Source of the DNA: a bacterium
GTDB taxonomy: Bacteria > Arandabacterota > Arandabacteria > Arandabacterales > JALGWA01
NCBI GenBank assembly: GCA_050125095.1
Contig: JASFEA010000067.1
Span: 1-17,793 of the forward strand
Length of the DNA stretch: 17,793 nt
Direction of reading: 5' to 3'
Part shown: in pieces, positions 7,201 through 15,955 of the stretch
Numbering within the stretch: position 1 is the first letter of the stretch
How the letters are laid out: each line of letters opens with the position of its first letter
The notes under the pieces: model-generated
Database searches by the model: none
What the model saw: only the letters and a program-made list of their open reading frames with translations
Told to the model about the DNA's origin: nothing
Position numbers and translations under genes: made by a program

Positions 7201-9220
7201 GTATCAGGCCCTGCTTGAAAAGGCAGTGGCCCTTCTCAGGTTCGGCGATGCCGGTGAGGCGGCTGAGGCAGCAAGAGAGGCACTCGTTGGGTTCAGCACC
7301 GAGACGTCTCTGCTGCTCACCGCGAGGGCGCAGGCTCTCCTCGGGGAGGCGTTATGCGCGGACGGCAAGGTGGACGAAGGTTTTGAGAAACTCGAGGCGG
7401 CGCGGGCCAACCTGCTCCCGGTGAGCAGGTCGCAGCACATGGGAAGAGTGTTCAAGGCCCTGGCGCGGGCATCCTATCTGCGCCGGGATCACGCGACTTT
7501 TTCCAAGTATCTGGATGAAGCACTTGAGATATTAAGGGCGGCAGGGGCGCGGTACGATTTCGCCGACGCCCTGTATCTCGGCGGCATGGAGGCGATGCAG
7601 AGGGGCGGTTTCCTGAGGGCCCGTCACTACTTCGCCGAGGCCGCGCGTATTTTCGAGAGCCTTGAAATCGATGACCTCCGCGAAAAGGTGGTGAGAGCTA
7701 TGGAGGCGGTACCGAGCGGCGAGATTGAGGTGAAGGCGGTTCATTCCCTTAGCCGGATATCACAGGCCCTGATATCGAAGCAGGACCTGGACAGCGTGCT
7801 TAATGTCGCCATGGATCTGGCCATGGACTACCTGGGCGCGGACCGGGGAGTCCTTATGCTGGCAACGGGTTCAGACGGCGACATGGTAACGGTTGCCGAG
7901 AGAAAGATGGACGAGGAGTCTCTGCGCGAGGTAGCGGACATAAGCAAGTCCATTGTCGAATCAGTTCGTTCCACGGGTGAGCCGGTAATAGCCACCGACC
8001 TCATGGACGACCCGCGTTTCAAGGACAGCCAGAGCATTCGTACGCATAACATAATGTCGGTGATGTGCCTGCCGCTCATGCGCGACAGGCGTCTGCTCGG
8101 GCTCTTATACCTCGACACAAGAGGCATACCCACCAAGTTCTCGGACCTTGAAAAGGCCTTCGTAGAAGCTTTCGCCAATCAGGTCTCGCTGGCGACGGAG
8201 AACGCGCGCACTCTCGGCGATCTGCGCATCAGCATCGACAATATGAAGGCGCGCGCGGGTGAGAGGTATCGCTACAGCAATATAATCGGGCCGGGACGCG
8301 CCATGCAGGAGGTATTCAGACAGGTCGAGAAGGCCGCGCCCAGCGATACCAACATCCTGCTCAGGGGAGAGAATGGCACGGGCAAGGACCTCATCGCAGG
8401 CCTGATACACGAACTCAGCCCCCGCAAGGATGGGCCGTTCATCGAAGTCAACTGCCCTGCCATAGCCAAGGACCTCGTGGAGAGCGAGCTCTTTGGAATC
8501 GAGAAGAGCGTCGCGACGGGAGTTGCCCCGCGATCGGGCTTTTTCGAGCGTGCCAACGGGGGAACCATATTCCTGAACGAGATCGGCGACGTTCCGCTCG
8601 CCACGCAGGTCAGGATACTCAGCGTTATCGATAAGAAGGAATTCGAGCGCGTGGGCGGGACCAGGGTAATCAAGGCCGACGTGCGTGTAATCACGGCGAC
8701 CAATCGCGACCTCAAGCACCTAATCACAAAGGGCGCTTTCAGGGAGGACCTCTATTACCGTATAAACCATATTCAGATAGGACTTCCTCCCCTGAGAGAG
8801 AGGATGGAGGACCTGGACGATCTCATAGCACACTTCATAAAGGACTTCGCCGCAAAGAACTCCAAGTCGCTGAAGCGCGTGTCGGAGGAGGCCCACAACG
8901 TACTCCGGGCCTATTCCTGGCCCGGCAATGTACGCGAGCTCGAGCGTTGTATCGAGCGGGCCGTTGTTTTTTCCGACGGTAATGAGATCCTCATAACCGA
9001 TCTTCCGGAAGAGGTGATAAAGGGGGCCAGGACGGGTCAACGCAGTGTGAAGGGGAGTACGCTTCCCGAGATTGTCGCCGATATCGAGAAAAGCGTTATC
9101 ACCGAGGAGCTGGGAAGGACGAACTGGAACAAATCCAGGGCGGCCCGAAATCTGGGCATTCACGAGGCCACCTTGCGCAAGAAAATCAAGATCCACGGCA
9201 TAGCAAAATCCCCCAACTAG
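4256..9220 (+). CDS. Multidomain sigma54-dependent transcriptional regulator: Ser/Thr kinase, degenerate STAND-like NTPase, TPR repeats, GAF, AAA+ sigma54-interaction domain, Fis-type HTH
   Basis: Kinase: IGTGSFGRV, YAAK, HGDLKPDN, DVG, GTLPYLAPE, DLYSLGVVLYE. Ala-rich helical TPR region about 6100-7670. GAF: ISKSIV...DDPRF..SQSI...SVMCLPL...LGLLYLD. AAA+: LLRGENGTGKD, VNCPAI, ESELFG, FREDLYYR, WPGNVREL. HTH: WNKSRAARNLGIHEATLRKKIK. Confidence 0.92.
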   Translation: MRYTIGDLIGTGSFGRVHEAHDAAGRKYAAKVVDAGDEVGLCLLRAQYRLLSAADHPRVVTVYDLVEDGDGAPHLVMEYLDGLSLVDHVRKAGLESLPGLAIRILDGLRHIHSLGGMHGDLKPDNIVVCGGENGHDVKLVDVGFDNAAGEKLPRIQGTLPYLAPEVIRSDPADGRSDLYSLGVVLYEALTGACPFGGNSPREIMNRHLEFTPPPPGVVSGDVDSAWDDLVMRLLSKEPTQRFPDATAAAFEIGRAFGDIDLVAGNLAPPRTLAHLWDMNGGLVEEAILSKPGRAVMVGGGRHAGVASVLRNVGARLKSRGAGVISVTLGDSDPLSAQVVRSLAGHGAGRRHARGDLPTRVSNPELFSLDSLLADYDLSLGRRHAIIIRAASEIDGAGLRAMSELAAASSDLVTVVIGLESERGVADGPVAEAGVEFVPMATLMSEGIADILRRQFGVTSVPAELLEALVGNTRGSALLLEETLADLWRSGDLGYKISNDVLELEWTSRAALPDSLKQVIENKVGELDENAVRVAGLLALAGGSLERSIIAEAGDHHGWEPYISELVERDLVDDAGAGMLRFNHAVTRGVILERLSPQWAKETAVRLAGEIEKAGIGPADSYRIGSLYQTGGRPADALPHLLRAGDYFARFSVMDATLAYGRALDCAAAGKERAEIEEKLGDLKLVESDFDSARDHYERASGYRPEAARKRAWVAALDGKYEEAEEMLKGCERAAEKRGDEIELARVRVDLAYVYAARGKIEESLGVVSGARRFFEERQMASEAGLAAYREGITRMRAGKYGAATSAWQAAVSHFEAAGDRRMAAQSLQAIGYAGRKQMDYQRAKQNLKRSLEIYSDLKGLSTMASASNTYSLVLLEMGDLVGSREFAREALEFNMMAGLKRGVVLARMLAALIELEAGNWRIAENALSEAQGGIPPEDLYLKAQLQRYLAMAKIISGDRDGALALIKESHSSARLAGDEEGKYQALLEKAVALLRFGDAGEAAEAAREALVGFSTETSLLLTARAQALLGEALCADGKVDEGFEKLEAARANLLPVSRSQHMGRVFKALARASYLRRDHATFSKYLDEALEILRAAGARYDFADALYLGGMEAMQRGGFLRARHYFAEAARIFESLEIDDLREKVVRAMEAVPSGEIEVKAVHSLSRISQALISKQDLDSVLNVAMDLAMDYLGADRGVLMLATGSDGDMVTVAERKMDEESLREVADISKSIVESVRSTGEPVIATDLMDDPRFKDSQSIRTHNIMSVMCLPLMRDRRLLGLLYLDTRGIPTKFSDLEKAFVEAFANQVSLATENARTLGDLRISIDNMKARAGERYRYSNIIGPGRAMQEVFRQVEKAAPSDTNILLRGENGTGKDLIAGLIHELSPRKDGPFIEVNCPAIAKDLVESELFGIEKSVATGVAPRSGFFERANGGTIFLNEIGDVPLATQVRILSVIDKKEFERVGGTRVIKADVRVITATNRDLKHLITKGAFREDLYYRINHIQIGLPPLRERMEDLDDLIAHFIKDFAAKNSKSLKRVSEEAHNVLRAYSWPGNVRELERCIERAVVFSDGNEILITDLPEEVIKGARTGQRSVKGSTLPEIVADIEKSVITEELGRTNWNKSRAARNLGIHEATLRKKIKIHGIAKSPN

Positions 9221-9234
9221 TGGGTGATAACCCT

Positions 9235-9433
9235 CCGTACGATCATACGAGTCGTATAATCGTACGAATCTAATCTCATGGCAGAGGACTCATGCCCTCT
9301 TAAGCCAATGCCTGTATTAATCTTTTAAATTTCAATATATTACCTCTCCTAAACATGCTTCAATCGCTTCAGCACACCCGCTTTTGAGGTCGGATCGCCT
9401 TTTCAGGTTACGAATTCTCGTATTTCTGTACGA
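9235..9433. promoter_or_regulatory. Palindromic upstream activator sites (T/C)CGTA-N6-TACGA, three copies
   Basis: CCGTAcgatcaTACGA 9235-9250, TCGTAtaatcgTACGA 9252-9267, TCGTAtttctgTACGA 9418-9433, plus a TACGA half site at 9409. The first two form a 15-bp inverted repeat with one mismatch. Confidence 0.75.
9330..9342 (+). promoter_or_regulatory. IHF-like binding site (distal)
   Basis: TTTCAATATATTA, one mismatch to WATCAANNNNTTR, preceded by an A/T tract; lies between the two UAS clusters. Confidence 0.5.
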
Positions 9434-9487
9434 ATCCGACCGAATCCGCGCATACGGCCTGCTCCTATCCCATTTTATTTGCTTAAA

Positions 9488-9500
9488 TAACAACTAGTTA
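9488..9500 (+). promoter_or_regulatory. IHF-like binding site (proximal)
   Basis: TAACAACTAGTTA, one mismatch to WATCAANNNNTTR, with upstream ATTTTATTT tract; lies between the UAS and the -24/-12 promoter. Confidence 0.6.
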
Positions 9501-9532
9501 GCGATGCAAAAAACTCGGCCTTTTTCCCGCGC

Positions 9533-9548
9533 GGGAACGGAAGTTGCC
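9533..9548 (+). promoter_or_regulatory. sigma54 (-24/-12) promoter
   Basis: gGGAACGgaagTTGCc: GG at 9534-9535, exactly 10 nt, GC at 9546-9547; resembles the consensus TGGCACG-N4-TTGC. Confidence 0.72.
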
Positions 9549-9596
9549 TTTATATAGGGTGGAAGTGTGATCGGGAGCACGAAAAGGAGGGTTTTT

Positions 9597-9824
9597 ATGG
9601 TCAAGAAGAGCTTGGTATTGTTCCTCATATTGAGCTTTGTGACCGCATTGACTTTGTTAACGCTCACAAATGCTTGCTGGGCGGATGACGACGCTGCCGG
9701 GGAAGGTGGGGATCCCGGCCAGATCAATCCGAGCTGCGAGCCTGTCACCCCGACACCAATCATCCTCAAGTTATTCTGGTACGCGGTTGGTTTGGTAGCG
9801 GGGAGTCTTGCTGCCATGCTGTAA
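9597..9824 (+). CDS. 75-aa small exported protein with signal peptide, short acidic segment and C-terminal hydrophobic helix
   Basis: Strong RBS AAGGAGG ahead of ATG 9597, preferred over GTG 9567. MVKKSLVLFLILSFVTALTLLTLTNACWA|DDDAAGEGGDPGQINPSCEPVTPTP-IILKLFWYAVGLVAGSLAAML. Confidence 0.8.
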   Translation: MVKKSLVLFLILSFVTALTLLTLTNACWADDDAAGEGGDPGQINPSCEPVTPTPIILKLFWYAVGLVAGSLAAML

Positions 9825-9883
9825 ACCGGAATAGAGCCCAGGGGCAGGGTGGTGGTGTTGGGGTGCCGGGAGGTTGAGGTGAG

Positions 9884-10603
9884 ATGACAAGCAGTGATCC
9901 GAGGATGCAGCCAGTGCTGGACCTTATGAGGAAGGCCGCGGAATGCTCGGCGAATGTCCTTGTCGAGGGTGAAAGCGGGGTGGGCAAAGCCTATTGTGCC
10001 CGCCGGATCCATGAGGCTTCGGCTCGCAGCGAAATGGCCTATGACAGCATCTTCTGCGTGCCTGAGACGCGCGCAGGGGGTGAGGGCAGGAGAATCCTGG
10101 CCCGTCTCCAGGCCGCAGAGCGGAAGTGGGGAAGCATTTATGTACGGGGCGTCGACCTGCTCGATGCCGTCAGCCAGCGTATGCTGCTGGCCTATCTTGA
10201 TTGTAGAGAGGACAGGATCGCCTCCTGCAGGGATCAGGGCTCTTGGGCAAGGCTCATTTTTTCGAGCCAGAAGGACCTATTAGAGGAGTCAAGATCGGGG
10301 CGCTTCTTAAGCCAGCTCTACATGAGGATTTCGGTTGTGAGAATCAGGATCCCGCCCTTGAGGCAAAGGGACGCCGACATAGTGCCACTCGCCAGGTACT
10401 TCGTCGGGCTCTATTCGAAGCGGGAGTCCAAGCGAATCAGCAAGCTGAGTCGCGAGGCCGAGGCGATGCTTCGCCGGTCGGCATGGGATGGAAACATTCA
10501 TGAACTAAAGAATGTTCTTAATCGTGCTGTGGTCATGGCTAACGACGGGGACTCACTCGGCCCGCGCGATCTCAGCCTGGTATTACGACGCGCAAACACC
10601 TGA
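9884..10603 (+). CDS. Stand-alone degenerate sigma54-activator AAA+ domain protein (no sensor domain, no GAFTGA loop, no HTH)
   Basis: RBS GAGGTG; ANVLVEGESGVGK Walker A, RIHEASAR, GRFLSQLYMRISVVRIRIPPLRQR, WDGNIHELKNVLNRA; in-frame stop at 9875-9877 prevents an N-terminal extension. Confidence 0.85.
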   Translation: MTSSDPRMQPVLDLMRKAAECSANVLVEGESGVGKAYCARRIHEASARSEMAYDSIFCVPETRAGGEGRRILARLQAAERKWGSIYVRGVDLLDAVSQRMLLAYLDCREDRIASCRDQGSWARLIFSSQKDLLEESRSGRFLSQLYMRISVVRIRIPPLRQRDADIVPLARYFVGLYSKRESKRISKLSREAEAMLRRSAWDGNIHELKNVLNRAVVMANDGDSLGPRDLSLVLRRANT

Positions 10604-10659
10604 GTTCTTGACATTGAATTGGCGTCGGCGAGGGACATGGGTGTTCGCAGGGAGGACAA

Positions 10660-11052
10660 GTGTCCGAGCGTGACCAGATCGAAGAGTTAATGCACTTTCT
10701 TCTGGCGAACGTGCTGGTCAATTCACTTGAAAAGGACGGATTCGAAGTCAGGGCGGACCATATCGGTGGTCTCCGGGGCGCTCCTACGCCGGTCGATGGT
10801 CTGACCCCTGACATCGAAGCCGTCAAGGGTGATGAGACCAGGCTGATCGAGGTCGAGACCCCGTCGACCGTTGGGAGCGATGAAGCCAGGAAGCAGATCG
10901 CGGCCTTCGCGGGAAAGCCGGGAGTCAAGGCCTACCTGGCCGTTCCCTATGACAGTGTCGACGAAGCCCGCAAGCTCAGGGATGAGCTCGGGGTCGAGTT
11001 CAACATCATCCCCTGTTATCCCTATGTGAACTCCATCGGTACACCCGAGTAG
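10660..11052 (+). CDS. Small hypothetical protein with PD-(D/E)xK-like (restriction endonuclease-like) motif
   Basis: RBS GGAGGA before GTG; TPDIEAVKGDETRLIEVET followed by the helix EARKQIAAF and the strand AYLAVP. Confidence 0.7.
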   Translation: MSERDQIEELMHFLLANVLVNSLEKDGFEVRADHIGGLRGAPTPVDGLTPDIEAVKGDETRLIEVETPSTVGSDEARKQIAAFAGKPGVKAYLAVPYDSVDEARKLRDELGVEFNIIPCYPYVNSIGTPE

Positions 11053-11097: not shown

Positions 11098-11151
11098 GGG
11101 GTCTGGCCCCAGCAGCTCGCTCCGGAAGCTCGTTTAATGGGGTCAGGCCCC
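11098..11151. repeat. Pair of 13-bp near-palindromes GGGGTC(T/A)GGCCCC (REP/STIR-like)
   Basis: GGGGTCTGGCCCC 11098-11110 and GGGGTCAGGCCCC 11139-11151; same GGGGTCAG core as the reverse complement of the 4138-4205 repeats. Confidence 0.65.
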
Positions 11152-11319
11152 CTTATGTCCGCATCCCGGTGTTGCGTGGAATCCGGCTCAGGCGATGTCG
11201 GACGACTTCGAGCGGCGATGGGCGCCGCTGTCAAGCCATTGACATCCCTCGCGATCTTAGGGAGAGTATTTCCAGGAGGAGTCCCCCGAGTTTCGGTTCA
11301 AAACCGGGAGGGCCCGTCT

Positions 11320-12606
11320 ATGGAAGGCACCAGCACGTCACTCGTAAGAATTCTTCACGGCACCGCTGGCAGAGGCGGTCGCCGGACCGCACTATTGGGA
11401 GCGCTGTCAATGCTCTATCTGGCAGCCTCCATCTTCTCCGGCTGCGGCGATGGGGCATCGACAGGTCCGGGCGATCAGGAAAAGGCCTGGACTTTCATGT
11501 TCTATGACCAGGCGGATGCGCCCCTGGGCTCATATGATCCAATGGAGGACTTCTGCAGAAGGGTCGCCTCGGGCTCCAGCGTGGACTTCGTCGTGCTCAG
11601 GGACACCAACGGAGACTCGGCAAGAATCTGGCACGTGACGGACGCACATATTCCTGCTCTCTGCAAAGAACTCGGTGAAGTCAACATGGGAGACGGCCAC
11701 ACCCTTTTCGACTTCATCGATTACTCCAAGACGCACTATCCCGCCCGGAGGTATGTGCTGGCGTTCTACGGCCACGGCGGGGGATGGCGGGGCGCATGCT
11801 TCGACCGCTCGAGCCAGTACGACGCTCTTACAATGGATGAAATATCGTGGGCGGTGGGGAATGCCGGCGGCGTGGACCTCACTGTTTTCACCAGCAACTG
11901 CTTCATGGGGGCGGTGGAGTCGGCCTATGAGCTGAGGAACTGTACGGACATATACGTGGGCAGTGAGAATTACTGCGGCTATGCGTTCTGGGACGCTCCC
12001 ATGGAAGACATCTGCAATGCGATGCATGCAGATCCGGACATGTCCAGTGAGGAACTCGCGCGTTTCATTGTCGATGCGGTCTGGGCTCGCAGGGACATAT
12101 GGGTCGAGGAGGACTGGTATCAGAATCTCACGGTGAGCGCGGTCTGGGCGGACAGTCTTGCCTCGCTGGTCCAAGCGCTTGATGAAGTCGCAGGCGATTA
12201 CCTCTCATGCCCCGCCAGGCTGCACGCCAGAATCAGCTGGGTCTATTCTGCCATTTGCATGTTTGGAGAAGAAGTGGTCGACGTATATCATCTGGCGCAC
12301 TGCCTGCTGAAGGTGGAGGACTGTGACAGCACCCGGACGAGGCTCGAGACCGTCAAGGAGCGGCTCTTGGACTGCGTTCTAGCCGAACGCCACGATCCCG
12401 TCTGGAGCGCGTATGGCCTGACTGTGCTCCTGCCTTACAAGTCCGAGTATGGCTACTACTGCCCCGAATACGGCGCTCCCGAAACGGCTCTGGATTTCGC
12501 CGAGGACACGCGTTGGGACGAGTTGCTCGCGGCCTATCCCTATGATTTCCCGGATGTGCCGCTCCAGGGTCCACCGGCCAGTATCCCCGTGGCCACCGGT
12601 CCCTGA
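11320..12606 (+). CDS. Clostripain-family (C11) cysteine peptidase, predicted lipoprotein
   Basis: RBS GGGAGG before ATG 11320, preferred over 11137; hydrophobic stretch then IFSG|C lipobox-like site; KAWTFMFYDQAD, GEVNMGD, YPARRYVLAFYGHGGGW (catalytic His), NCFMGAVESAYEL (catalytic Cys), YVGSE. Confidence 0.88.
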   Translation: MEGTSTSLVRILHGTAGRGGRRTALLGALSMLYLAASIFSGCGDGASTGPGDQEKAWTFMFYDQADAPLGSYDPMEDFCRRVASGSSVDFVVLRDTNGDSARIWHVTDAHIPALCKELGEVNMGDGHTLFDFIDYSKTHYPARRYVLAFYGHGGGWRGACFDRSSQYDALTMDEISWAVGNAGGVDLTVFTSNCFMGAVESAYELRNCTDIYVGSENYCGYAFWDAPMEDICNAMHADPDMSSEELARFIVDAVWARRDIWVEEDWYQNLTVSAVWADSLASLVQALDEVAGDYLSCPARLHARISWVYSAICMFGEEVVDVYHLAHCLLKVEDCDSTRTRLETVKERLLDCVLAERHDPVWSAYGLTVLLPYKSEYGYYCPEYGAPETALDFAEDTRWDELLAAYPYDFPDVPLQGPPASIPVATGP

Positions 12607-12750: not shown

Positions 12751-12789
12751 AATAAATCTTTATGCTGACGATATGAGCCATAAGGGCAC

Positions 12790-12805
12790 TGGCACAACGA
12801 TTGCA
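12790..12805 (+). promoter_or_regulatory. sigma54 (-24/-12) promoter of dnaK
   Basis: TGGCACAACGATTGCA, a near-perfect match to TGGCACG-N4-TTGCW. Confidence 0.88.
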
Positions 12806-12889
12806 TTGGATAACAAGCGGAACCAAGATAACGCAAATTCGGGCCGGTCCGCACTCATGCGGGCCTTGGCCGCTAAGGAGGAGATGAAA

Positions 12890-14827
12890 ATGGGTAAGAT
12901 CATCGGAATCGATCTGGGTACCACAAACTCATGTGTCGCGGTTATGGAGGGCGGCGAGCCTACCGTGATTACCAACCAGGAGGGAAGCAGGGTAACGCCG
13001 TCTGTAGTCGCTTTCACCAAGACGGGCGAGAGGCTGGCCGGGCTTACCGCCAAGCGGCAGGCCATTACCAACCCTCAGAACACCGTTTACTCCATCAAGC
13101 GGTTCATGGGCAGGAAGTTCGGCGAGGTTGAGTCGGAGATAGGCGAAGTGCCGTATGAGGTCGTTCAGGGCCCCAACGGTGACGCCAGGGTCAAGGCGGG
13201 CGGCAAGGAGTATTCGCCTCCCGAGATCTCGGCCATGATTCTACAGAAACTGCGCCAGACGGCTGAGGACTATCTCGGCGAGAAGGTGACGGACGCGGTC
13301 ATAACCGTGCCCGCTTACTTCAACGACTCCCAGCGTCAGGCGACAAAGGACGCAGGCAAGATCGCGGGGCTCAACGTCAAGCGAATCATCAACGAGCCGA
13401 CGGCGGCTTCGCTCGCCTACGGCCTTGATAAGAAAGCCAAGGATGAGAAGATCGCCGTGTACGATCTCGGCGGCGGCACGTTCGACATCTCGATTCTCGA
13501 GATAGGGGACGGCGTCTTCGAGGTTCGTGCGACCAACGGCGACACCCATCTCGGCGGCGACGACTTCGACCAGCGCATAATCGACTGGCTTGCAGAGGAA
13601 TTCAAGAAAGAGCAGGGAATCGATCTCAAGAGCGATCCCATGGCGCTGCAGCGCCTCAAGGAAGGCGCCGAACGCGCCAAGTGCGAGCTTTCGAGCGCGC
13701 AGGAGACGCAGATCAACCTGCCGTTCATCACGGCCGACGCCAACGGTCCCAAGCACCTTAACATCACGCTCTCGCGCTCCAAGCTCGAGCAGCTTGTGGA
13801 TGACCTGGTAGAGAGGACGGTGGGGCCCTGCAGGAAGGCGCTCGAGGACGCCAAGCTGAGCCCGAGCGATATCGACGAGGTCATCCTAGTCGGCGGGCAG
13901 ACCAGAATGCCGGCGGTGCAGGAAGCCGTTAAGAAGATCTTCGGCAGGGACCCTCACAAGGGCGTCAATCCCGACGAGGTCGTGGCCATAGGCGCGGCCA
14001 TTCAGGGCGGCGTGCTCGCGGGCGAAGTGAGAGACGTGCTGCTTCTCGATGTTACCCCGCTCTCCTTGGGCATCGAGACCATGGGCGGCGTCTTCACGAG
14101 GCTGATCGAGCGCAACACGACCATTCCTTCGAGGAAGTCGGAGATATTCACGACGGCCGCCGACAGCCAGCCGGGTGTCGAAGTTCACGTGCTCCAGGGC
14201 GAGCGCGAGATGGCCGCAGGCAACAAGTCAATAGGCAAGTTCCATCTGACCGGGCTGCCGCCCGCCCCGAGGGGTGTTCCGCAGATTGAAGTTACATTTG
14301 ACATTGACGCGGACGGGATATTAAATGTATCCGCCAAGGACCTCGCGACGGGTAAGGCTCAGTCGATCAGGATCGAGGCTTCGAGTGGACTTACCGAGCA
14401 GGAAATAGATAAAATGGTAAAGGACGCCGAAGCTCACGGTGCTGACGACAAGCGCAGGCGCGAGGAGGTCGAAGCAAAGAATCGAGCCGACCAGCTCGTC
14501 TATGAGACCGAAAAGAATCTCAAGGAGATGGCCGACAAGGTTTCTGCTGATGACCGGGCCAAGGTTGAGGCGGCCATAAGCCGCACCAGGCAGGCTCTCG
14601 AGGGTGACAACATCGAGGAGCTCAAAGCCTCGACGGACGCTCTCATGCAGGTGGCCGGGCAGGCTGCACAGGCCGCATATCAGCAGGCGGCGGGCGCCGG
14701 CGCCGGTCCGGGCGCCGGTCCGGGCGCGGGCCCGGGGCCGCAGGCCGGTCCTGCGGGAGGAGCCGACGAGCAGGCGCAAGGCGGCCGGGACGAAGCTGTC
14801 GATGCCGACTACGAAGTCGTGGACTGA
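12890..14827 (+). CDS. dnaK: Molecular chaperone DnaK (Hsp70)
   Basis: RBS AAGGAGGA, then [60 protein letters not shown]-terminal DADYEVVD. Confidence 0.99.
14693..14740 (+). repeat. Coding low-complexity repeat (GAGP)n in the DnaK C-terminal tail
   Basis: ggcgccggtccg 12-mer units encoding [16 protein letters not shown]. Confidence 0.7.
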
Positions 14828-15250: not shown

Positions 15251-15955
15251 TCAATCTCTCCTCGTTGTCTCGAGGTTGAGAGGCAGCTCTATCCATGCTT
15301 CCACGGGTTCGGTCCCCCGCCGCGCCGGGCGGAAGCGGAACTGCATCGCCGCTTCCATTATCCGGTCATAGACCCTGCGGTCCGCGGGGGCGTTCGATAT
15401 TACAACCTCAAGAGGCCGCCCCCACTTGCTCACCAGAATCTGAAGCGTTATGGTCAGGTCCTCGAGGTCGAGATTTTCAACGGACGGCGGCACTATGAGA
15501 CTGGGCACCGGCGGGTAGAACCTGGGCTCTTCGACTACGAGGACACCGTCATCTCCGCCTCTGCCGGGAACGTCGTCGATCCGGTCCCCCTCTCCCGTGG
15601 GCTCGGGCCCCGCAGCTCCTCCGGCCGGTTCGGGCCGGTCCGGCGCGTCTCTTTCTTCGGGAGTCACGGTCTCCCTCAGGCGTTCCACGTACTCGGCCTC
15701 GGCCTCAAGAGGGGCGACTTCCACCTTGGGATTGGTGAGTAACTCCACCTGGGGCTCGGCTTCATCGATATAGATCACGTGGATGGCGAATTGTTCGAAA
15801 TTGGGCATGAGATCCGACGGCGGCCCCGAGCTCTCGGGCGACGTGCTCGGGAATAGAACCTCGTACATGCGCCCGGGAAGCAGCAGTATGGCCATATGCA
15901 GAATGACCGCGAGGACTATGTACTTCCACGGGGATGTGGTCTTCCTTCTTTTCAT
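15251..15955 (-). CDS. TonB-like energy transducer family protein
   Basis: N-terminal TM IVLAVILHMAILLL (conserved His), Pro/Glu-rich linker, C-terminal LQILVSKWGRPLEVVI...MEAAMQFRFRPARRGTEPVEAWIELPLNL resembling the TonB C-terminal domain. Confidence 0.75.
   Translation of the reverse strand: MKRRKTTSPWKYIVLAVILHMAILLLPGRMYEVLFPSTSPESSGPPSDLMPNFEQFAIHVIYIDEAEPQVELLTNPKVEVAPLEAEAEYVERLRETVTPEERDAPDRPEPAGGAAGPEPTGEGDRIDDVPGRGGDDGVLVVEEPRFYPPVPSLIVPPSVENLDLEDLTITLQILVSKWGRPLEVVISNAPADRRVYDRIMEAAMQFRFRPARRGTEPVEAWIELPLNLETTRRD

Follow-up and report, generated by a model that had tools for sequence, protein, structure and literature searches.

Several described systems resemble parts of the locus analyzed here, which centers on a small open reading frame (ORF) for a 75-residue micro-protein, at positions 9597 to 9824 of the forward strand of contig JASFEA010000067.1. 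The window is the whole of this contig, 17,793 bases of a metagenome-assembled genome of 3.35 Mb and 91% completeness. Procoat proteins of the M13 gene VIII type consist of a signal peptide, an acidic periplasmic segment of ~20 residues, and a single hydrophobic helix near the C terminus. In the RRNPP systems of Firmicutes (Phr, PapR, and SHP), genes for Sec-exported pro-peptides lie beside those for the regulators that control them, which combine a helix-turn-helix (HTH) domain with TPR repeats and use sigma-70 promoters. By way of working, the nearest known case is that of PspB and PspG in the PspF regulon of Escherichia coli, which share with the predicted micro-protein a size of ~70 to 80 residues, a place in the inner membrane, a sigma-54 promoter, an activator with very few targets, and an output in the envelope (PMC2763126).

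The small protein is nonetheless unlike PspB and PspG in that it has no sequence relation to them and differs in predicted layout, which comprises a signal that is cleaved off, an acidic stalk in the periplasm, and a single helix at the C terminus. The models for PspB (PF06667) and PspG (PF09583) were not among the Pfam matches of the 45 members of the micro-protein family at E-values up to 1. PspF is a minimal activator held in check by PspA, whereas the regulator encoded upstream of the small ORF is a 1654-residue protein with kinase, TPR, and GAF regions. The micro-protein has the signal, acidic segment, and single helix near the C terminus of a filamentous-phage procoat, but it lacks a basic DNA-binding tail, has no phage genes nearby, and keeps a fixed chromosomal site throughout its order. 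As in the RRNPP systems, the gene for a small Sec-exported precursor adjoins that for a TPR-containing transcription regulator, but here the regulator is a sigma-54 activator, the organism probably has two membranes, and the C-terminal part of the peptide is a helix resembling a membrane span. With PEP-CTERM and LPXTG proteins the micro-protein shares a conserved proline-containing motif directly before a C-terminal hydrophobic helix, but it has no basic cluster, no match to the models, no sorting enzyme, and only a single carrier per genome. The nearest clusters in the ESM Atlas are the TrbC/VirB2 and DUF4134 pilins, small proteins that likewise have a long signal peptide and hydrophobic helices, with scores of 0.81 to 0.87 that can be taken as a lead only. 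We rejected assignment as a type IV secretion pilin because the micro-protein does not match PF04956 or PF18895, would have one helix rather than two in its mature form, and has no secretion-system genes near it in the window. A limited search of the literature on kinase-domain sigma-54 activators, and on this candidate phylum, found no such module.

The explanation that we favor, with moderate confidence, is that the micro-protein is exported, held in the inner membrane, and docks onto an envelope partner there, and that it comes first among the products of a dedicated sigma-54 circuit. The family is undescribed and the circuit unusual, yet exported micro-proteins with one membrane span are a well-known kind of molecule. 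Annotation regularly overlooks small exported proteins, and a regulator is known for only a few of them. In this locus a protein of 75 residues is paired with one of the most elaborate of bacterial regulators, a 1654-residue kinase/TPR/GAF sigma-54 activator. Because one regulator, one promoter, and one micro-protein are kept across the order, which is uncultured, the locus offers a clean system for asking what a micro-protein is for and which decisions a giant multi-sensor activator takes. The evidence assembled here is comparative throughout.

A small gene conserved across an order

Comparison among relatives indicates that the small ORF is a genuine gene and not a spurious one. It opens with an ATG at 9597 and closes with a TAA at 9822 to 9824, and the corresponding frame is open over 69 to 76 codons, with one copy per genome, in 15 genomes. 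The ratio of nonsynonymous to synonymous substitution rates (dN/dS) lies between 0.22 and 0.57 in seven of the eight pairs for which it could be computed and is 0.85 in the remaining, very close pair; a ninth pair was saturated at synonymous sites and excluded. None of the other frames over the small ORF is consistently open across loci. An antisense ORF of 172 residues (9494 to 10012) was rejected as a gene because antisense open frames vary in frame and length between loci. A longer form of the small ORF, from a GTG at 9567, was also rejected: this start has no ribosome-binding site (RBS) and lies ~8 nt from the predicted transcript start, and the homologs begin at MVKK.

A word-indexed search of 5.8 billion proteins returned five relatives of 74 to 75 residues with 65 to 72% identity. 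Six-frame searches found the small ORF in the two remaining genomes of the genus and, with ~34% identity, in a sister family. With a profile built from 17 sequences, exactly one copy was found in 15 of the 18 genomes analyzed from the phylum, which corresponds to 15 of the 16 from the order. The sixteenth genome of the order is 57% complete, and the relevant contig starts only within the second gene downstream of the small-ORF site, so the small ORF is simply unassembled there. In the two genomes of the class that fall outside the order (sister family f3), the small ORF, the middle region of the regulator, and a nuclease-fold gene that accompanies them were all not found, with the AAA-only gene of the locus not searched for in these two.

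When a profile was run exhaustively against 1.84 billion cluster representatives, it matched 33 proteins at E-values up to 0.001, 31 of them small proteins (51 to 103 residues) of the same build and the other two repeat proteins, which we regard as artefacts. Searches of Pfam and NCBIfam with the window micro-protein and all 45 members yielded scattered single matches with E-values of 0.002 or weaker and no family, and no Pfam family matched the window micro-protein at E-values up to 0.01. PADLOC detected nothing on it, a profile search of sequences in the Protein Data Bank gave one chance match (E = 3.7), and a search of Rfam over 9150 to 9950 gave only a chance match to a CRISPR repeat (E = 0.98). 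By these searches, the micro-protein belongs to a small, lineage-restricted, and undescribed family.

Export signal, conserved core, and C-terminal tail

The first-pass annotation of this DNA described a Sec-type signal, an acidic segment, and a hydrophobic C-terminal tail without a basic end, and the sequence is as described except that the tail has 21 residues rather than 20. We read signals and tails by rule in 20 aligned members and measured conservation in 45 sequences. All 20 aligned members have one to three lysines or arginines in the n-region, a hydrophobic core of 14 to 20 residues, and the motif [CSTG]-x-A before an aspartate, glycine, glutamate, or serine. Ala29 is invariant among them, and the cysteine at position −3 is invariant in the first 17 sequences but replaced by serine, threonine, or glycine in three further genomes. 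This variation at −3 fits the −3/−1 rule of signal peptidase I and not a lipobox, and the micro-protein is thus predicted to carry a Sec signal peptide that is cut by signal peptidase I. A lipobox has the pattern [LVI][ASTVI][GAS]-Cys with an invariant cysteine. We rejected a lipoprotein because the residue that precedes the cysteine is proline, valine, threonine, or methionine in most members and the cysteine itself is lost in three of the 20.

Cleavage at the predicted sites would leave mature peptides of 43 to 49 residues, with 46 for the window product. Across the 20 members, the exposed part of these peptides comprises 24 to 30 residues with a net charge of −3 to −9 and four to eight prolines. 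In the window micro-protein it divides into an acidic linker (residues 30 to 36) and a proline-rich conserved core (residues 37 to 54) with the pattern G-D-P-x4-P-x-C-x-P-V-T-P-T-P. Gly38 is invariant in the 45 sequences, and Asp39, Pro40, Pro45, Pro52, and Thr53 are each present in at least 90% of them. The motif that directly precedes the tail is L-[ED]-P-T-[PA] or V-T-P-T-P across the family.

A GDPxxxxP core had been singled out in the first-pass annotation as the part to look for in related genomes, and this expectation held. Mean pairwise identity is 0.50 for the segment from G-D-P to P-T-P, compared with 0.32 for the tail, 0.24 for the signal peptide, and 0.21 for the acidic linker, which makes the G-D-P-x4-P...P-T core the most conserved part and, on this comparison, the signature of the family. 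The reverse pattern, with the core less conserved than a flanking hydrophobic segment, is not found overall but does occur in a subgroup of 16 of the 45 sequences, in which the tail is nearly fixed (...MAMA[FY]Q[LF]A[LF]) and has an identity of 0.77 versus 0.56 for the core. Stronger conservation of the tail in this subgroup points to a function for the tail and is no sign of a spurious gene.

Tails are 19 to 21 residues long in all 20 members and contain no more than one lysine or arginine, never at the end. Their average Eisenberg hydrophobicity of 0.63 and moment of 0.20 lie in the range of membrane spans. The window tail has a mean Kyte-Doolittle value of 1.93, an Eisenberg hydrophobicity of 0.71, and a moment of 0.22, and it contains a single lysine and ends the protein without a basic cluster. 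Most members have an aspartate or glutamate at tail position 4 or 5. The genus-level comparison comprises nine sequences, the window micro-protein and eight homologs. In six of the eight homologs, tail positions 4 and 11, which share a face of the helix, are acidic, and a small-xxx-small motif comes after them; the window micro-protein has lysine and glycine at these two positions. Since the tail is conserved within subgroups and contains polar and small residues, it probably also packs against the helix of a partner.

An AlphaFold model made with the family alignment has a helix at residues 3 to 28, a low-confidence coil at 29 to 53, and a second helix at 54 to 74, with a mean predicted local distance difference test (pLDDT) score of 67. 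Residues 31 to 50 are disordered in the model, with mean pLDDT values of 48 to 53 over two blocks of 10 residues.

A complete sigma-54 control region

Transcription from a sigma-54 promoter does not begin unless its activator is present. The 376-bp gap between the upstream gene and the small ORF houses a sigma-54 control region, with its spacing kept among relatives. The first-pass annotation had noted a strong RBS and an elaborate promoter, and both are borne out: GGAGG lies 6 nt upstream of the ATG, with purine-rich sites at the same place in all loci, and the promoter, judged by its elements, is a complete one of the sigma-54 type. Every one of the 15 genome loci has a GG-N10-GC element with TTGC 55 to 78 nt ahead of the start codon, and the position of this element in the window predicts a transcript start near 9559. 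The genome contains rpoN.

Upstream of the −24/−12 element, the proximal enhancer palindrome is exact in 14 of the 15 loci, where it lies 104 to 119 bp from the −24 element, and has one mismatch in the fifteenth. The IHF-like site between them has zero to two mismatches to the consensus WATCAANNNNTTR in 14 of the 15 loci and three in one. Downstream of the predicted transcript start, a box in the 5′ untranslated region (UTR), G[CT]GATC[CG]G, is present in 11 of the 15 loci at −30 to −45. Past the small ORF, an intergenic box lies 13 to 35 nt after the stop codon and is exact in 14 of the 15 genomes, although the flanking proteins are merely 35 to 50% identical. It is not enriched as a genome-wide repeat (64 sites versus ~90 expected), and RNAalifold found no consensus structure in the spacer that separates the small ORF from the AAA-only gene. 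The same order recurs throughout in a metagenome locus that is more distant (L045, with 86% identity to family member P0023): the end of an activator gene, the palindrome, the IHF-like site, the −24/−12 element, the UTR box, the RBS, the small ORF, and the intergenic box.

The exact palindrome occurs at four sites in the 3.35-Mb genome, compared with ~1.7 expected from composition, and two of the four are at this promoter. Because the palindrome is nearly confined to this locus, whichever activator reads it would have essentially one target promoter.

The giant regulator

The giant regulator that the upstream gene encodes is presumed to be the activator of the small-ORF promoter: its adjacency, its HTH domain, and the near-uniqueness of the palindrome argue for this role. 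In eight loci the small ORF is preceded by an ortholog of this regulator with 43 to 64% identity, so that homologs of the micro-protein gene adjoin the same activators, as the first-pass annotation would lead one to expect. PADLOC gave generic kinase- and activator-domain matches on the giant regulator and on the AAA-only protein encoded downstream of the small ORF.

The loop of the giant regulator that would contact sigma-54 (near residues 1415 to 1422) reads xVATG[VI] in place of the usual GAFTGA, with alanine for the key phenylalanine. This variant is present in the eight orthologs with a readable loop (eight of nine sequences examined, two of them partial), whereas at least 11 other activator paralogs of the same genome keep G[AS]FT[GD]A. 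In the window genus, the Walker B motif of the giant regulator has N-E in place of the usual D-E. The locus thus joins two linked sigma-54 oddities, an alanine-for-phenylalanine contact loop in the activator and a loop-less AAA-only paralog alongside it.

Proposed sequence of events and points against it

In the course of events that we propose, an activator, most likely the giant regulator, would assemble on the palindromes, and IHF would bend the intervening DNA so that sigma-54 polymerase could open the promoter near 9559. The small ORF would be transcribed first, together with the gene for the AAA-only paralog and the gene for a protein with a PD-(D/E)XK fold. The 75-residue precursor would enter the Sec pathway, and signal peptidase I would cut it after C-W-A29, leaving a 46-residue product whose C-terminal helix anchors it in the inner membrane with the N terminus outside. 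The 25-residue stalk, acidic and rich in proline, would then face the periplasm, where the G-D-P...P-T motif could dock onto an envelope partner, while the AAA-only protein may join the activator ring as a feedback brake. Among the three roles suggested in the first-pass annotation, a tiny membrane-tethered ligand fits the data best. The low conservation of the signal region, one of the least conserved parts of the protein, makes a released signal peptide unlikely, and a ribosomally synthesized and post-translationally modified peptide would be expected to have a modifying enzyme, of which there is none among the neighboring genes.

Several observations weigh against this explanation. Many tails are short for a membrane span, with 14 to 15 hydrophobic residues once the aspartate or glutamate at positions 4 to 5 is excluded, and seven of the 20 tails have a mean Kyte-Doolittle value below 1.6. 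Six of the eight genus-level homologs carry two or more acidic residues inside the tail, and with such residues the tail may instead bind a protein groove or lie in the plane of the membrane. The unusual contact loop makes it uncertain that the giant regulator, rather than one of ~14 other activators, fires the promoter. Assembled contigs from RNA libraries also cover little of the small ORF. One metatranscriptome library has a contig over 9738 to 9882 at 100% identity and another over 9853 to 11048, and three further libraries have contigs with parts of the AAA-only and nuclease-fold genes. These contigs reach only the last 87 nt of the small ORF and come from libraries that may contain DNA; none of the four runs covers 9597 to 9737, the first 141 nt, which is not evidence of absence. 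We take the contigs as weak support for transcription. A complex prediction for the mature peptide (residues 30 to 75) with residues 600 to 1170 of the regulator scored under the mark and counts neither for nor against binding.

Alternative explanations

The alternative that survives best, although we consider it improbable, is that the precursor stays uncleaved as a two-helix hairpin in the inner membrane, its acidic loop outside and its two ends at the cytoplasmic face. E. coli PspG, from the PspF regulon, is predicted to have such a topology, with two membrane helices and both ends cytoplasmic (PMC2763126); this regulon is a sigma-54 stress regulon, and PspG is one of its small effectors. 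The AlphaFold model, with two helices of ~20 to 26 residues joined by a 25-residue acidic loop, and the basic N terminus would both suit a hairpin. The small-x-Ala motif that directly follows the first helix in all 20 members does not, as there is no reason for such a motif without cleavage, and neither PspG nor PspB is matched in Pfam.

We give little credence to the locus being a conflict or suicide module, in which a STAND-like kinase regulator would sense an insult and then turn on a PD-(D/E)XK nuclease along with a peptide that acts on membranes. The kinase part of the regulator does match models of defense-system kinases, including the mad6 type; the third gene encodes a nuclease fold; and a small, hydrophobic product behind a sigma-54 promoter with a tight off-state would suit an effector. 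PADLOC, however, matches generic domains only and finds nothing of its own on the micro-protein, the AAA-only protein, or the nuclease-fold protein. The module also keeps a fixed core-genome site between purA and dnaK, in single copy and throughout the order, which is unusual for defense islands, and an exported, conserved acidic stalk is unexpected for a pore-forming toxin.

There is likewise only a small chance that the product is a secreted pro-peptide of an autocrine or quorum loop with RRNPP logic, released, re-imported, and sensed by the TPR and GAF regions of the activator, which would in turn induce the peptide gene. A regulator that contains TPR repeats lies directly upstream, the peptide gene is the first behind what appears to be the regulator's only promoter, and behind the Sec signal there is a conserved C-terminal part that begins with aspartate or glutamate in most members. 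A cell that probably has two membranes, as a TonB-like neighbor suggests, and a tail that resembles a membrane span speak against release and re-import. The core is conserved throughout the order without pheromone-like diversification, and the conserved module includes no peptide importer or processing protease. We rate as equally doubtful the related proposal of autoinduction, in which the micro-protein would be both output and input of the giant regulator, with the exported and processed peptide or its Asp/Glu-headed hydrophobic C-terminal fragment sensed through TPR and GAF, the peptide gene induced in response, and the AAA-only protein acting as the brake. If true, peptide autoinduction would here run through sigma-54 in a bacterium with two membranes.

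SecM, MifM, and VemP control secretion genes, and their arrest sites are close to the stop codon. Only a slim chance attaches to the small ORF being a cis-acting monitoring ORF of this style, with its translation or export controlling translation of the AAA-only gene. The N-terminal export signal, the proline-rich conserved motif (with PPG in many members), and a position 59 nt upstream of the next gene, across a spacer with the strongly conserved box CCCAGGGGC, are what such an ORF might have. Here, though, 19 to 21 codons follow the conserved motif, in contrast to known arrest sites; the window genus lacks PPG; the AAA-only gene has no part in secretion, and its RBS is not hidden by any conserved RNA fold; and the tail is under sequence constraint, unlike a mere spacer.

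A C-terminal sorting signal of the PEP-CTERM, LPXTG, or similar type on a minimal cargo, a resemblance that the first-pass annotation had drawn to CTERM signals such as PEP-CTERM and that is suggested by the Pro/Thr motif (E-P-V-T-P-T-P here, L-E-P-T-P in relatives) before a C-terminal helix, failed every test and deserves next to no weight, as none of the 45 members matches an NCBIfam CTERM sorting model at E-values up to 1, no exosortase (PF09721) or sortase (PF04203) was found in the 91%-complete genome, a profile of core and tail finds this ORF alone among 60,934 six-frame ORFs (next E = 0.33), and no basic cluster accompanies the zero to one lysine or arginine in the tail of all 20 members.

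Neighboring genes and features of the locus

The gene order purA, regulator, small ORF, AAA-only gene, nuclease-fold gene, and dnaK is kept in the loci of relatives, with the activator, small ORF, AAA-only gene, and nuclease-fold gene syntenic in 11 loci and dnaK following the module in every locus long enough to show it (Table 1). There is no convincing terminator between the small ORF, the AAA-only gene, and the nuclease-fold gene, and the three are probably co-transcribed.

Table 1. Positions of the regulator, control elements, micro-protein segments, and downstream genes in the window.
Feature	Position	Strand	Description
Giant regulator, 1654 aa	4256-9220	+	Ser/Thr kinase, TPR region, GAF, sigma-54 AAA+, and Fis-type HTH (Pfam, NCBIfam)
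Distal enhancer (upstream activating sequence, UAS), first copy	9235-9250	.	Palindrome copy, 15 of 16 positions; examined in the window only
Distal enhancer (UAS), second copy	9252-9267	.	Exact TCGTA-N6-TACGA; examined in the window only
Proximal enhancer palindrome	9418-9433	.	TCGTATTTCTGTACGA; 115 bp upstream of the −24 element; also in L045
IHF-like site	9488-9500	+	TAACAACTAGTTA; ~45 bp upstream of −24; one mismatch to WATCAANNNNTTR
Sigma-54 −24/−12 element	9533-9548	+	GGGAACGGAAGTTGCC; GG at 9534-9535, GC at 9546-9547
5′ UTR box	9567-9574	+	G[CT]GATC[CG]G; ~8-15 nt into the predicted 5′ UTR
Ribosome-binding site	9586-9590	+	GGAGG
Signal peptide	9597-9683	+	Residues 1-29: MVKK, 20-residue hydrophobic core, C-W-A; predicted signal peptidase I cut before D30
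Exposed segment	9684-9758	+	Residues 30-54, DDDAAGEGGDPGQINPSCEPVTPTP; acidic, proline-rich
C-terminal hydrophobic helix and stop codon	9759-9824	+	Residues 55-75, IILKLFWYAVGLVAGSLAAML; predicted membrane anchor
Intergenic box	9837-9845	+	CCCAGGGGC; between the small ORF and the AAA-only gene
AAA-only sigma-54 activator paralog, 239 aa	9884-10603	+	No DNA-binding domain
Nuclease-fold protein, 130 aa	10660-11052	+	PD-(D/E)XK fold, XisH/Hjc-like; third gene of the presumed operon

Some truncated activators are known to act alongside full-length partners, such as FleT with FleQ. The AAA-only protein, with orthologs of 50 to 74% identity in 11 loci, has an intact Walker A motif, but it lacks the GAFTGA loop insertion and has the Walker B pair replaced (by Arg-Gly or similar). 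Because it is without the sigma-54-contact loop and the Walker B pair, the AAA-only protein could plausibly be a modulator or feedback brake, or a poison subunit, that joins the activator ring.

The nuclease-fold protein gives a weak match to Hjc in Pfam, and its AlphaFold model (pLDDT 87) has XisH as its closest Foldseek match (4.5e-4), followed by Hjc and NucS. It contains conserved D-I-E...E-V-E-T residues and has orthologs in 11 loci. By sequence its family is confined to the lineage, with 36 relatives of at least 51% identity, and PADLOC detected nothing on it.

Between the nuclease-fold gene and dnaK lies a gene for a C11 (clostripain-family) peptidase (11137 to 12606) with a probable lipoprotein signal (...F-S-G-C). 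We considered it as a processing enzyme but rejected it as a member of the module because it is present here and in only one of the 11 loci of relatives, which is from the same genus. A 234-residue protein encoded on the reverse strand (15251 to 15955) has an N-terminal membrane helix, a middle rich in proline and glutamate, and a conserved C-terminal domain. This layout resembles the TonB type, with no Pfam match and with 30 to 68% identity in five loci, and it suggests that the organism probably has two membranes. The dnaK frame (12773 to 14827) has ~40 extra N-terminal codons ahead of the point at which DnaK models begin, so the true start of dnaK is probably near codon 40.

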